Shown piece by piece: positions 16,086 through 29,588 of a stretch of DNA of 52,500 nt. The stretch covers positions 1 to 52,500 of IMG/VR virus record IMGVR_UViG_3300025138_000057. One strand, 5' to 3'. The translations under genes were made by a program, and so were the position numbers. Numbering within the stretch: the stretch's first letter is position 1; each line of letters starts with the position of its first letter. The notes under the pieces were generated by a model. The model did not search any database. It saw nothing but the letters and a program-made list of their open reading frames with translations, and was not told the DNA's origin. Origin of the DNA: a virus. Lineage: Duplodnaviria; Caudoviricetes.

Positions 16086-16961
16086 TTATTGTTTGTTTAC
16101 TGATTCTATGATTTTATTTATATTAAATATTTCTCCTAGATCATTATAGGCAATAGACGAAACATCTTGCGCTAGGCCAAATGGTTGGTATATTGCTTGT
16201 TGATCTTGGGGTGTTTTTGTAAAAGGATTCGCTAAAATATTATCATGCATTTTATAACCAAATATTTCAGGTTTAGTTGTAACCCAACAAACTGTAGATT
16301 TTTTATTTACTGATGCTGATAAATGTTGAGCAAAAGAATCTATTAATAAACGTTTAGTAGATAGTTTTAATAAAATAGCTATACTTCTAAAACCATCTAG
16401 TGCTTGCATAGTGTCGGGATAAATTTTCTGATCCTGTCTTTTTATATGTACTATTGTATAATCATTTTTATAATAATTGATTAATTCTAATATTGTAGGT
16501 TCAGGTAAATCTCTTGTCCATGAATATTGAAATCCTTGTTCTGCTGGGCCTCCATTAGTTTGTAGGGCTAAGATAGGCTTATCTACTTGGTAAAATGGGG
16601 TAAAATAATCTATCTCGGGTTGTGTTAAATAAATTTCTGGTTGTTCTCCCCCATAGCTTAATCCATAAATTTTACACCATACTCTAAGTAATTGATGTTT
16701 TTCTAGGATAAAATCACTATTACGATAAGGATCCTCTATAAAAACTTTACATTCTTGGTTTTTAATATATTTAGGATACATACCATTAATTTGGTCTGTT
16801 CTATAAACTTTTGTAATAAGGGGATTATTTAAAAATACATCTGGGTAAGCCGTTACAATAAATAAGTTTGCATTTTTGTAACGTTTTTTTATGACTTTTA
16901 CCATTGCAGTAGCCATAATAGATTTTCCTAGACCCCCGTCTATTTGAAATATAATATTCAT
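16086..16961 (-). CDS. GT-B glycosyltransferase (GT9/heptosyltransferase-like)
   Basis: N-terminal GGLGKSIMAT (GxGD-like) and C-terminal IDSFAQHLSAS (DSgxxHlAaa-like). Confidence 0.7.
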   Translation of the reverse strand: MNIIFQIDGGLGKSIMATAMVKVIKKRYKNANLFIVTAYPDVFLNNPLITKVYRTDQINGMYPKYIKNQECKVFIEDPYRNSDFILEKHQLLRVWCKIYGLSYGGEQPEIYLTQPEIDYFTPFYQVDKPILALQTNGGPAEQGFQYSWTRDLPEPTILELINYYKNDYTIVHIKRQDQKIYPDTMQALDGFRSIAILLKLSTKRLLIDSFAQHLSASVNKKSTVCWVTTKPEIFGYKMHDNILANPFTKTPQDQQAIYQPFGLAQDVSSIAYNDLGEIFNINKIIESVNKQ

Positions 16962-16980
16962 AACTATTTAATTAAAAGAT

Positions 16981-27400: not shown

Positions 27401-29588
27401 GGTCACCAGTTGTGGAACTGTTGAAACTATATGCGAATGTTGCTCCTCCAAAATTACCGTCTGGTCCTGTAGGTCCGGTTGGTCCAGTTGGGCCATTAGG
27501 TCCATTAGGTCCTGTTGGTCCAGTAGGTCCGGTACCGCCTGTCGATCCTTGACTTCCTGTAGGTCCGGTTGGTCCAGTTGGTCCTGTATTTCCAGTAGTT
27601 CCTGTTGTACCTTGTGATCCTGTAGGTCCTGTTGGTCCGGTTCCTCCTGTAGGTCCAGTTGGTCCAGTAGTCCCTGTTGTACCTTGTACTCCATTAGGGC
27701 CTGTTGGTCCGTTCGGTCCTGTTGGACCTGTACCTCCTGTTGCTCCTTGTACTCCATTAGGTCCTGTTGGACCTGTCGGTCCAGTTGAACCGGTTGAACC
27801 GGTTGATCCTTGTGATCCAGTAGGTCCTGTTGGTCCGTTAGGTCCTGTTGGACCTGTGCTTCCTGTTGTTCCTGTTGTACCCTGTACTCCGTTAGGTCCA
27901 GTTGGTCCTGTTGGTCCAGTAGGGCCTGTAGAACCGGTAGATCCTTGTGATCCAGTAGGACCTGTTGGGCCAGTACTACCTGTTGTACCGGTAGCACCCT
28001 GTACTCCGTTAGGGCCTGTATTACCAGTAGTTCCTGTGGTCCCTTGAGATCCAGTAGGTCCTGTTGGTCCGTTAGGTCCTGTTGGGCCTGTGCTTCCTGT
28101 TGTACCTACAGCTCCTTGACTACCAGTAGGGCCAGTTGGACCTGTAGGTCCGGTTCCTCCTGTAGGTCCTTGAGAACCTGTCGATCCTGTATTACCTGTT
28201 GTACCAGTTGTTCCTTGTGATCCAGTAGTACCAGTTGATCCTTGTACTCCATTAGGTCCAGTTGGACCGGTTGGGCCTGTTGGTCCAGTAGATCCTGTTG
28301 TTCCTTGTACTCCATTAGGTCCAGTTGGTCCTGTTGGTCCTGTTGGGCCGTTAGGTCCTGTTGGTCCAGTTCCTCCTGTAGGTCCTTGAGAACCTGTCGA
28401 TCCTGTATTTCCAGTAGTACCTGTTGTACCTTGAGAACCAGTTGGACCAGTTGGTCCTGTTGGTCCGGTAGAACCTGTACTCCCTGTTGTTCCTTGAACT
28501 CCATTAGGTCCTGTTGGACCTGTACCTCCTGTTGCTCCTTGAGAACCAGTTGGACCAGTTGGTCCTGTTGGTCCAGTAGGGCCTGTATTTCCTGTTGTTC
28601 CTGTTGTACCTTGTACTCCATTAGGTCCTGTTGGACCTGTTGGCCCGGTTGGACCTGTATTACCTGTCGGGCCTTGTGATCCAGTTGAACCTGTATTTCC
28701 TGTTGTTCCTGTTGTTCCTTGACCTCCGGTTGCTCCTGTTCCACCCTGAGAACCTGTAGGTCCTGTTGGTCCAGTTGGACCTGTAGGCCCTGTAGGACCT
28801 GTAGTACCTTGAGATCCAGTTGGACCTGTTGGTCCGTTCGGGCCTGTTGGGCCGTTAGGACCTGTAGGTCCTGCTGGACCTGTAGTACCTTGTGGGCCGG
28901 GTAAACTATCTGCGTATGCTTTTACTGATTGTTGGGTTGGTATAAGTGTAGCACTATTAGAAGACATATTATCTTCATCTACAAAGCCTGTTATTGTAAT
29001 CGTATCATCTGATAAAGAACCAAATGTTATAGTACCGCTACCGCTTATATCCCCAGAAGCTGATATATGTCCCGCTGGACCATCTATAAAAACTGTAGAA
29101 CTACCAAATTGTGCTTTATTAGCAAATATTGTAGCACTTGAACTGATATCACCAGAAGCTGTTATTTCTCCATTAGCCCCATTTATAGTAACAGAAGGAC
29201 CTGTCCCTGATGGGGAACCATTAATAAATTTTGCAGCAAAAATAGTACCCGAAGCGCTTATATGGCTAGATGCTGTTACTGGTCTGTTAAGGGATATACC
29301 TATATGATCAGAATTTGGAGGAGATCCTATTTCTAATATACCGTTTGATTCAAATAGGGTTGGTTTACTGCCTAGTGATGCAATTCCAAAACCGGAATTA
29401 GCATTATCTCCATGGGCCTGGAATTTATCTCCGAAAAAATTTGTATCTACACTACCGCTTATATTACCATTAGCTGTAATGTCATTTTTTGATGCTATAT
29501 TACCACTAGCTGTAATACTACCATTTGTGGTAAGAGAATTTAAGTTAGCGTCCGAGCCACTAACAATAAGTTTTTTCCAGTTGGGCAT
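24435..29588 (-). CDS. Collagen-like long fibre protein (1717 aa)
   Basis: Two long Gly-X-Y blocks (GPT, GPN, GSQ, GTT) separated by a globular insert; C-terminal IGGGxxN repeats and a distal domain. Confidence 0.9.
25533..27092 (-). repeat. Collagen Gly-X-Y block 2 (~520 aa)
   Basis: 9-bp periodic ggtcctgtt-type repeats; 59-bp identical duplication at 25798-25856 and 26158-26216. Confidence 0.9.
27457..28900 (-). repeat. Collagen Gly-X-Y block 1 (~480 aa)
   Basis: Continuous Gly-X-Y triplets; ~41-bp duplication starting at 28153 and 28369. Confidence 0.9.

Follow-up and report, generated by a model that had tools for sequence, protein, structure and literature searches.

A candidate tailoring island for a collagen-like tail fibre in the late operon of a tailed phage

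The window examined here is a 52.5-kb stretch of phage DNA (52,500 nucleotides, positions 1 to 52,500 of the IMG/VR virus record IMGVR_UViG_3300025138_000057; Duplodnaviria, Caudoviricetes; completeness estimate 32%) in which ten genes lie between the gene for a collagen-like tail fibre and that for the tail sheath. We consider it probable, at roughly 60%, that these genes form a phage tailoring island for the fibre, acting in the cytoplasm, expressed with the virion genes and built as a mosaic of modules. In relatives, the link between the island and collagen-like fibre genes is much stronger than chance would give, and the presence of its 2-oxoglutarate (2OG)-Fe(II) oxygenase tracks, in a suggestive manner, the proline content of the neighbouring collagen.

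The fibre gene and the ten island genes are as follows.

24435..29588, minus strand: collagen-like tail fibre, 1717 aa; Pfam Collagen (PF01391) 2.2e-117; the proposed substrate
23860..24453, minus strand: GAMT/RMT2-like S-adenosylmethionine (SAM) methyltransferase, MT197; its first 19 nt overlap the 3' end of the fibre gene
23098..23856, minus strand: p252, a Thr/Ser/Ala-rich protein; no Pfam, PHROG or NCBIfam family
22415..23008, minus strand: 2OG-Fe(II) oxygenase with a fold of the prolyl 4-hydroxylase (P4H)/PHD type; PF13640 1.5e-13, phrog_61 3.3e-30
20650..22413, minus strand: GH130-like propeller (aa 1-345) and FkbM methyltransferase (aa ~380-587); FkbM PF05050 1.2e-10, TIGR01444 5.6e-16
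19260..20663, minus strand: TPR domain (aa ~10-190) and WavE-like domain (aa ~195-467); PF07507 1.7e-11, TPR match sub-threshold
18440..19333, minus strand: APH-fold kinase; PF01636 6.7e-7 at residues 160-215, weak AmgK match 0.0038
17413..18471, minus strand: nucleotidyltransferase-like region (aa 1-225) and putative HAD phosphatase (aa 235-350), by profile A5
16981..17316, minus strand: DUF7936 small protein, 111 aa; PF25590 7.6e-21, phrog_7802 1.2e-20
16086..16961, minus strand: GT-B, GT9-like putative glycosyltransferase, 291 aa, by profile and Atlas structure
15785..16039, minus strand: conserved 84-aa protein, whose gene directly precedes that of the sheath and closes the island on its distal side

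An earlier note on this stretch, made from its letters and open reading frames (ORFs), had placed its named enzyme genes between the collagen fibre and sheath genes and had described five of them, from 23008 to 17413, as abutting or overlapping. All were located there on the minus strand, and the ORF coordinates agree, the five genes being contiguous with a 1-nt gap followed by overlaps of 14, 74 and 32 nt. Three genes of the interval, encoding p252, DUF7936 and the 84-aa protein, were absent from that note. Each enzyme call was checked in turn, and the family-level results are given below by gene. No membrane-like segment was detected in any cassette protein (top 19-residue hydropathy 1.54).

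Linkage of the island to collagen genes

Three sets of loci were compared. The propeller set was retrieved with the propeller domain only as query and holds the best 80 of 392 viral stretches (73 non-identical loci); the oxygenase set holds 64 loci (51 non-identical); and the control set, chosen by tail sheath alone, holds 80 loci (78 non-identical). A collagen ORF is defined as one with at least 20 Gly-X-Y triplets, upstream counts refer to the same strand, and the Fisher tests ignore relatedness. Single loci are cited by number (L003 and so on).

In the propeller set, 40 loci reach at least 3 kb upstream, and 33 of them have a collagen ORF there; for a reach of at least 5 kb the count is 27 of 31, and downstream it is 1 of 58. 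The distance from the end of the upstream ORF to the propeller gene is below 100 bp in 18 loci. Among the sheath controls, collagen is found upstream in 2 of 29 loci (at least 5 kb), and only 2 carry the oxygenase; the propeller count of 33/40 against the control count of 2/29 gives a Fisher p of 1.5e-10. Selection by the oxygenase places collagen upstream in 22/34 loci against 2/47 downstream (p = 2.6e-9), and the oxygenase loci that lack the propeller give 13/24 upstream against 2/30 downstream. Co-occurrence of the cassette with collagen fibres, named as a check in the earlier note, has thus been examined three ways.

Beyond viral records, one genome from each of 185,579 prokaryote species yielded 19 propeller loci, all on contigs of metagenome-assembled genomes (MAGs) or bins, and 11 of the 19 have a collagen ORF. 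The homologues in bins include remote ones, at 27-30% identity, on high-GC actinobacterial contigs. On the actinobacterial MAG contigs L238-L241, the propeller and TPR genes are followed directly by a short collagen ORF (46-90 triplets, 8-16 Pro at X), a gene order that is the reverse of that in the window. Among GenBank phages, the Synechococcus phage DSL-LC02, a metagenome-assembled genome represented by no isolate (PMC10611076), has an annotated collagen-like protein adjoining a propeller and two FkbM genes, between tail-fibre genes. A propeller and a TPR gene are also present in the record of Synechococcus phage S-SCSM2R (host WH7803).

A fibre with proline at X and none at Y

The fibre consists of an N-terminal domain (residues 1-230), a collagen region (231-716), a globular insert (717-833), a second collagen region (834-1352) and a C-terminal Gly-rich domain (1353-1717), and it scores 383 bits against PF01391 (cut-off 27.2). 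The earlier estimate of about 330 Gly-X-Y triplets dominated by Gly-Pro-Thr was close: the count is 335, in two unbroken runs of 162 and 173, with GPT (127), GTT (44), GPN (33) and GSQ (31) as the commonest triplet types. Proline occupies X in 168 of the 335 triplets. The Y position is held by Thr (246), Gln (46) and Asn (33), with proline in 0/335, and lysine occurs once in the 335 triplets. Proline precedes glycine only in 4 Gly-Pro-Gly triplets, and the fibre offers almost none of the X-Pro-Gly sites that the classical animal collagen prolyl 4-hydroxylases require. Because proline never stands at Y, any hydroxylation must fall on X. Hydroxylation at that position would be like what prolyl 3-hydroxylases do, or like the looser site preference of P4Hs from algae, viruses and bacteria.

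Bann and Bachinger are said to have found in 2000 that 4-hydroxyproline at the X position of Gly-Hyp-Thr stabilises the triple helix. Galactosylated threonine has a like effect: in a passage of PMC11923368 that cites Bann et al. 2000, (Gly-Pro-Thr)10 is described as a random coil that becomes triple-helical only with galactosylated Thr. That the unmodified repeat stays a random coil provides a physical reason for modifying the fibre. A triple helix of 1005 residues would be ~290 nm long at a rise of 0.286 nm per residue.

At the DNA level, the GGN-CCN-ACN repeat lifts local G+C to 49%, against ~29% elsewhere. Long off-frame ORFs run inside the collagen gene at 25490-27100, 27377-27997 and 28106-28744 on the minus strand and at 26361-26888 and 28242-28679 on the plus strand, with products rich in Gln/Asp/Leu or in Ser/Cys/Arg; they are by-products of the repeat, not genes.

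The oxygenase and the proline content of neighbouring collagens

The protein called a 2OG-Fe(II) oxygenase in the earlier note is one by family (PF13640 1.5e-13), scoring 51.9 bits against Pfam 2OG-FeII_Oxy_3 (cut-off 27). Residues H114, D116, H174, R184 and S186 are invariant across 44 sequences (HxD...H...RxS); from the usual motif order, not superposition, we take the first three to be the iron triad and R184 to be the basic residue that binds 2OG. A model built with 44 homologues (pLDDT 93) was compared with solved structures by fold (TMq 0.76; Z from VIA-align). PHD2 and a Trichoplax PHD head the comparison (Z 20.2), followed by the Pseudomonas putida P4H that acts on EF-Tu (Z 20.0), the algal Cr-P4H with a (Ser-Pro)5 peptide (3gze, Z 18.2), vCPH of the virus PBCV-1 (5c5t, Z 17.2) and PKHD/PiuC proteins (Z ~17); the 50 highest-Z entries listed are all protein prolyl hydroxylases or PKHD/PiuC proteins. 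This modelled double-stranded beta-helix fold makes the oxygenase a candidate fibre prolyl hydroxylase. Its relatives occur in 348 phage records, mostly of cyanophages. It is present in 23 of the 80 propeller-selected loci, and there its gene always directly precedes that of the propeller, the order also seen in the window.

Proline content was compared over the 36 non-identical rows of the propeller set with visible collagen, placed on the propeller tree. All ten rows with the oxygenase have proline at X in 4.5-55% of triplets, and 24 of the 26 rows without it stand at 3% or below, the exceptions being L007 (7%) and L065 (5/21 triplets); the Fisher p of 2.6e-7 ignores relatedness and should not stand by itself. 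Contrasts within clades run in the same direction, between L012 (without oxygenase, 0 Pro in 245 triplets) and L015 and L018 (with it, 21-22%), between L007 (7%, without oxygenase) and the window, L003 and L005 (50-55%), and between L075 (0/137) and L066 and L074 (21-33%). The control locus L213, which lacks the oxygenase, has a 249-triplet collagen with 0 Pro at X. Within the oxygenase set, 21 of the 22 loci with upstream collagen include at least one collagen with proline at X in at least 4% of triplets.

A GH130-like propeller paired with a TPR protein

Downstream of the oxygenase, both parts of the propeller-FkbM fusion recognised earlier hold, and the propeller can be refined, by fold, to a GH130-like five-bladed one. 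The FkbM domain scores 42.2 bits against PF05050 (cut-off 22.7) and 59.3 against TIGR01444 (cut-off 37.7). The N-terminal 345 residues, modelled with 28 homologues (pLDDT 86.8), form a five-bladed propeller whose top matches are all GH130 beta-mannoside phosphorylases or synthases (Foldseek E 1.7e-8, TM 0.52-0.63). In VIA-align, GH130 entries take ranks 1-21 with Z 20.4-23.6, compared with at most 18.2 for GH43 and 17.5-18.2 for Leishmania GT108; the best match is RaMP1 (5ay9; Z 23.6, root mean square deviation (rmsd) 3.3 Å, 283 residues aligned). The propeller is on this ground a candidate transferase or phosphorylase that forms beta-glycosides. Sub-threshold Pfam matches within the family are to GH130 in 5 of 28 members (best E 0.0052) and to the yeast beta-mannosyltransferase BMT in 2 of 28. 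A PDB search with the single sequence matched the methyltransferase part only, and one with the propeller profile returned chance antibody matches only. Numerous Arg, His, Lys, Asp and Glu residues are invariant in the family. Propeller and TPR proteins have so far been named only by unexamined annotations such as 'beta-mannosyltransferase' or 'MGP protein'.

The next gene encodes, as had been proposed, a TPR domain fused to a WavE-like domain. The latter scores 44.3 bits against PF07507 (cut-off 27), covering positions 79-209 of the 305-position profile, and 28 of the 30 nearest named clusters in the Atlas are WavE; PDB searches with the single sequence of this protein or of the GT9-like protein gave nothing useful. 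By these family matches the WavE-like domain is a putative glycosyltransferase. In 79 of the 80 loci a TPR domain stands beside the propeller or forms a single protein of ~740 aa with it, and the lone exception ends just after the match.

In relatives, the fusion partners of the propeller and TPR domains are FkbM methyltransferases, radical-SAM/SPASM domains (L029, L075) and GT25 (L066), a family that includes the animal collagen galactosyltransferases. These cofactor-dependent fusions, the lack of membrane segments and the late-operon position together argue that the propeller and TPR domains form an intracellular enzyme assembly, not a virion part or passive chaperone. The genes at L029:1334-3994 (886 aa) and L075:6018-9476 (1152 aa) join the propeller, one or two FkbM domains and radical-SAM/SPASM in a single polypeptide, and each is followed by a separate TPR protein. 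At L066:8332-10038, the propeller is fused to GT25 (PF01755, 2.1e-6); the same locus carries two paralogous oxygenase genes, at 5069-5659 and 7692-8327.

Candidate donor-synthesis, GT9-like and methyltransferase genes

Of the two proteins that could supply a sugar donor, the APH-type kinase of the earlier note matches PF01636 above the cut-off (29.7 bits against 23.2), the match being limited to a 56-residue catalytic stretch; HGDFSVANMIF is seen. From this it is a candidate sugar kinase for donor synthesis. The earlier call of an NTP-transferase fused to HAD has moderate support. Profile A5 matches the NDP-sugar pyrophosphorylase 4evw at 1.2e-5 over residues 4-209 (206 residues) and the Pnkp1 phosphatase at 0.0087; Pfam NTP-transferase gave no match to the protein, NCBIfam matches fall far below their cut-offs (23.5 against 600), and the Pfam HAD matches fall just below theirs (HAD_SAK_2, 25.1 bits against 27.5), with D242 and D244 of the DIDGT motif invariant. 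The fusion is on this profile a candidate for activated-donor synthesis. Its family has 1578 matches at E <=1e-5, nearly all of ~352 aa and from marine or freshwater metagenomes, and the homologues are named only 'hypothetical' or 'HAD family hydrolase'. Kinase and nucleotidyltransferase-HAD genes are present in 5 of the 6 loci with a WavE-bearing TPR protein and in 0 of 43 without WavE; because the five are close kin, the link to WavE may be a single event.

The GT9-like transferase is the weakest of the earlier calls. A structural lead comes from the Atlas, whose own model of the protein reaches TM 0.81 against a cluster of viral proteins, 46% of them with PF01075; no Pfam (GT9, PF01075), NCBIfam or PDB match was obtained with the single sequence, and its profile reaches GT9 3tov weakly (E 0.048). 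In relatives the gene is often directly upstream of the oxygenase (L015, L018, L096-L106). A scheme in which the kinase, HAD and nucleotidyltransferase functions feed NDP-heptose to the GT9-like enzyme was rejected as the main reading: GT9-like genes (14 loci) and the kinase and nucleotidyltransferase-HAD genes (5 loci) never occur together in 111 non-redundant loci.

Next to the fibre gene, the GAMT-like methyltransferase proposed earlier is supported by a five-sequence profile (A3) that matches guanidinoacetate N-methyltransferase 3orh at 6e-14 over profile residues 31-171; Pfam alone gives a weak Methyltransf_25 match (0.0011). The p252 protein, which always accompanies MT197 behind the collagen gene, has homologues of 28-36% identity in L003, L005, L007, L009 and L012, each encoded next in order after MT197 or after the collagen gene, and it may assist the fibre as an accessory or in assembly. 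Regardless of proline content or oxygenase, the collagen gene is followed by MT197 and p252 in L003, L007, L009, L012 and L213. In L213 the MT197 homologue is 70% identical to that of the window, p252 is next to it, and no oxygenase or propeller lies within 10 kb; the methyltransferase and p252 thus form a collagen-linked pair of their own.

The two remaining small proteins also recur in relatives. DUF7936 has homologues in L009, L012, L066 and L074; in the last two its gene is the first one behind the collagen gene, and in L012 it lies close to that of the GT9-like protein. Homologues of the 84-aa protein precede the sheath gene in L003, L005, L007, L012, L066 and L074.

A modular island and its proposed chemistry

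The earlier note had read these genes as one 'complete pathway', a claim that gives way once relatives are considered. Of the 64 oxygenase-selected loci, 39 lack the propeller; of the 80 propeller-selected loci, 57 have the propeller/TPR pair but no oxygenase; and MT197 with p252 accompanies the proline-free collagens of L012 and L213, which have no oxygenase. As the modules occur separately, the island is a mosaic, not one obligate pathway.

From the observed gene content, folds, active-site residues and co-occurrence we infer each chemical step, and the fibre as substrate, as follows. The oxygenase would hydroxylate the X-position proline of Gly-Pro-Thr and Gly-Pro-Asn repeats as the fibre is made. 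The GH130-like propeller and TPR protein would then transfer a sugar onto the threonine at Y or onto the new hydroxyproline, with the TPR domain presumably docking the extended collagen chain or scaffolding the enzymes. The glycan may be extended by the WavE-like domain, whose activated donor would come from the APH-fold kinase and the nucleotidyltransferase-HAD fusion; FkbM would methylate a sugar, and the GT9-like transferase would add a further one. The GAMT-like methyltransferase and p252 accompany the collagen gene itself. The likely benefit is stabilisation of a triple helix, ~290 nm long, whose sequence would not fold unmodified; shielding or adhesion are possible benefits as well.

More tentatively, tailed phages of aquatic bacteria may run a 'procollagen maturation' of their own, in which a PHD-like oxygenase makes X-position hydroxyproline, the propeller and a collagen-docking TPR domain O-glycosylate the fibre, and one subfamily of the marine-phage 2OG-Fe(II) 'auxiliary metabolic genes' encodes virion-protein prolyl hydroxylases.

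Weighing of alternative explanations

Several observations weigh against a tailoring role. By sequence, the closest solved relatives of the oxygenase are PKHD/PiuC proteins, whose substrate is unassigned. The proline comparison offers only two starred independent contrasts (four on all branches), too few for significance in a phylogenetic sign test; the oxygenase is retained in L009, where only 6 of 133 triplets have Pro, and missing from L065, where 5 of 21 do. The propeller protein of the window has no GH130 (PF04041) match by sequence, and no family member reaches the Pfam cut-off; the resemblance is one of fold alone. Of the propeller loci with at least 3 kb upstream, 7 of 40 have no collagen there, including L069, L070, L078 and L079, and the same is true of 12 of the 34 oxygenase loci. 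The adjacency could in part stem from a shared insertion hot spot, with fibre and accessory genes gathering in hypervariable host-recognition regions. WavE, GT9 and GT25 are named after lipopolysaccharide (LPS) loci, and excerpts of PMC7029224 describe host-recognition clusters of pelagimyophages and cyanomyophages as rich in glycosyltransferases, read there as O-chain modifiers.

The last of these points belong to the view, raised as an alternative in the earlier note, that the enzymes remodel the LPS core, O-antigen or capsule of the host, for superinfection exclusion or so that progeny do not stick to debris, the fibre gene being a bystander in a hypervariable host-recognition region. Sets of kinase, nucleotidyltransferase and HAD are in general typical of surface-sugar pathways, and relatives of the L069 type have the island with no collagen nearby. 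We nevertheless regard host-glycan remodelling as unlikely, and it is weakened by the collagen linkage (propeller/TPR and oxygenase genes follow collagen genes in 27/31 and 22/34 loci, against 2/29 in controls) and by the proline tracking of the oxygenase, which it leaves unexplained. The module spans low-GC marine contigs, Synechococcus phage records and high-GC actinobacterial bins, whose hosts have very different envelopes and which have collagen in common. Cellular genomes almost lack the propeller family, with 19 loci in 185,579 species against 392 viral stretches, and the proteins have no membrane segments and are encoded in a late structural operon.

Loci of the L069 type have a composition of their own. 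At L069:10001-15082, and also in L070, L078 and L079, genes for a propeller, a TPR-methyltransferase protein, FkbM and GT2-like and GT9-like proteins lie just upstream of the sheath gene; these loci also encode a different, 224-aa oxygenase-like protein and have no collagen within 10 kb upstream. Their sheaths are 57-58% identical to that of the window, against 41-48% for the collagen-bearing L003-L007. The fibre genes of these loci must lie elsewhere.

A non-catalytic propeller/TPR pair is less likely again. It would serve as a fibre assembly chaperone, or as a virion lectin or depolymerase at the fibre tip, and only the appended domains would be enzymes. A gene just downstream of a fibre gene commonly encodes a chaperone or a distal part of the fibre, TPR domains serve as scaffolds that bind proteins, and the propeller lies below all glycosidase and transferase family cut-offs by sequence. 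Set against this, fusions to SAM methyltransferase, radical-SAM/SPASM and GT25 domains put the pair in the cell interior, alongside enzymes that depend on cofactors, the large number of invariant residues (Arg, His, Lys, Asp and Glu) is as expected of an active site that binds sugar phosphates, and GH130 scores well above other propellers (Z 23.6 against at most 18.2).

Least likely of all, the enzymes make or tailor a small molecule or free glycan, or the oxygenase tunes 2-oxoglutarate or repairs DNA, roles proposed in portions of Iyer et al. 2010 for cyanophage tandem dioxygenases (secondary-metabolite synthesis, PMC2938197) and of Sullivan et al. 2010 (2OG modulation or DNA repair, PMC3037559) and in keeping with the 348 phage records, mostly of cyanophages, in which its relatives occur; the fold is that of protein prolyl hydroxylases, not AlkB/TET, the gene is locked beside collagen and fibre genes and tracks proline, and family scans of the island found no scaffold-building genes (non-ribosomal peptide synthetase, polyketide synthase or similar).

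Relation to known systems

Virus-encoded collagen modification is already known for giant viruses, and the island reads as a variant of it in a tailed phage. In mimivirus, according to portions of PMC9546862, PMC5802723 and PMC12279948, it has been demonstrated for the lysyl hydroxylase/glucosyltransferase L230 and the glucosyltransferase R699. Both viruses encode collagen-like proteins and a 2OG oxygenase, together with glycosyltransferases, which in the phage are candidates. The mimivirus system, in a giant virus of amoebae, is lysine-based (hydroxylysine and glucose), whereas the tailed phage has one lysine in 335 triplets, a P4H/PHD-like oxygenase, and GH130-like, WavE-like and GT9-like proteins as transferase candidates.

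Closer chemical parallels exist for single components. The PBCV-1 vCPH and the algal Cr-P4H act on proline-rich repeats that are not X-Pro-Gly. The window oxygenase shares their small single-domain P4H fold (5c5t and 3gze; rmsd 2.6-2.7 Å over 164-168 residues), but it has 18-20% identity to them, PHD2, Trichoplax PHD and P. putida P4H score higher (Z 20.0-20.2), and its proposed site is the proline at X of Gly-Pro-Thr. The Gly-Pro-Thr collagen of Bacillus anthracis BclA carries O-glycosylated threonine, including the methylated sugar anthrose. BclA and the window fibre share the dominance of Gly-Pro-Thr; BclA is a bacterial exosporium protein, served by other enzyme families and not known to depend on a prolyl hydroxylase. 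In the cuticle collagen of Riftia, galactosylated threonine at Y makes Gly-Pro-Thr repeats fold, as a passage of PMC11923368 has it; this is an extracellular animal protein and a chemical analogy only. GH130 beta-mannoside enzymes and Leishmania GT108 have the same five-bladed fold as the propeller and form or cleave beta-mannosides with mannose 1-phosphate or GDP-mannose; the window family differs in being viral, paired with TPR, located beside collagen genes and without sequence-level membership.

A role in virion modification also has precedents. The primary paper on virion glycosylation in mycobacteriophages is reportedly by Freeman et al. in 2023. Glycosyltransferases encoded in the structural region of these phages glycosylate virion proteins, as stated in part of PMC11256854. 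Unlike here, the targets are capsid and tail-tube proteins, and no collagen, oxygenase, GH130-like or TPR module is known to take part. Bacterial operons of 2OG dioxygenases and sulfotransferases with collagen-like or tail-collar proteins were described by Iyer, Abhiman, de Souza & Aravind 2010, who, in the sections concerned, predicted hydroxylation followed by sulfation (PMC2938197). Our reading likewise derives collagen hydroxylation and further modification from gene neighbourhood, and those sections also mention a cyanophage dioxygenase family fused to TPR; the oxygenase families are others, and phage dioxygenase arrays are read there as secondary metabolism. We found no published report of phage collagen hydroxylation or glycosylation in full-text searches that do not cover subscription journals, and a literature search on WavE biochemistry gave nothing usable. 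Prokaryotic collagens are usually said to lack hydroxyproline.

The late structural operon of the window

Every gene of the window, whose G+C is ~29%, is on the minus strand, with coordinates as in the earlier note. PHROG and Pfam scans gave a late structural operon that reads from high to low coordinates, with the island lying between the run on the terminase, portal and capsid side and that on the baseplate side.

48779-50350, minus strand: terminase large subunit
46854-48755, minus strand: portal
43449-44054, minus strand: protease
40458-42122, minus strand: major capsid protein
39524-40261, minus strand: PhoH, between capsid and head-completion genes, the same position as in Flavobacterium phage immuto
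33563-34714, minus strand: head-tail adaptor
30192..31598, minus strand: fibre-like protein, 468 aa, 5' of the collagen fibre; no family, N-terminus like that of the collagen fibre
13704-15725, minus strand: tail sheath, the boundary gene of the island; phrog_23 3e-73 and Pfam sheath domains
13169-13657, minus strand: tube

The 468-aa fibre-like protein has homologues of 46-61% identity upstream of the collagen gene in L003 and L009. Beyond the tube gene come genes for the baseplate hub, for a 756-aa protein whose composition is like that of a tape measure and which matches no family, and for the baseplate wedge. A 1193-aa protein of the baseplate region (3629-7210) has an endolysin-like stretch at residues 1043-1152 (phrog_37890 1.1e-11, phrog_90 4.7e-6) and may, by these matches, be a tail-associated lysin. 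Compared by sheath, the closest named phage is Flavobacterium phage immuto (46% identity), in which nothing but small genes and a lysozyme gene, and no island, separates the fibre genes from the sheath gene; megablast found no close relative among phage records. Sigma-70-like sites stand at chance level in the window (72 found, 65.6 ± 8.8 expected) in a scan that omits Bacteroidota-type promoters; one 9/12 site falls inside the 89-nt gap upstream of the oxygenase gene. At this level the sites do not confirm the single promoter to which the earlier note had assigned the five contiguous genes. A terminator scan of the window gave no excess over chance.

Implications for phage biology

The 2OG-Fe(II) oxygenases of marine phages have hitherto been explained as modulators of 2OG and nitrogen, as DNA repair enzymes or as secondary-metabolite enzymes (in parts of PMC3037559 and PMC2938197), and the glycosyltransferases of phage host-recognition regions as modifiers of host O-chains (in part of PMC7029224). 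If the fibre is indeed the substrate of the island, one oxygenase subfamily would acquire a concrete function, and this part of the abundant 'auxiliary metabolic genes' of marine phages would be non-metabolic, acting on a virion protein. The GH130-like propeller and TPR proteins would be a new viral enzyme pair devoted to collagen-like substrates, and the compact enzymes of the island would be available as tools for producing recombinant collagens with modifications. Hydroxylation and glycosylation of collagen would extend beyond eukaryotes and giant viruses, and phages would adjust, after translation, how stable their receptor-binding fibres are and what surface chemistry they present, with a bearing on host range and on the stability of particles at sea.

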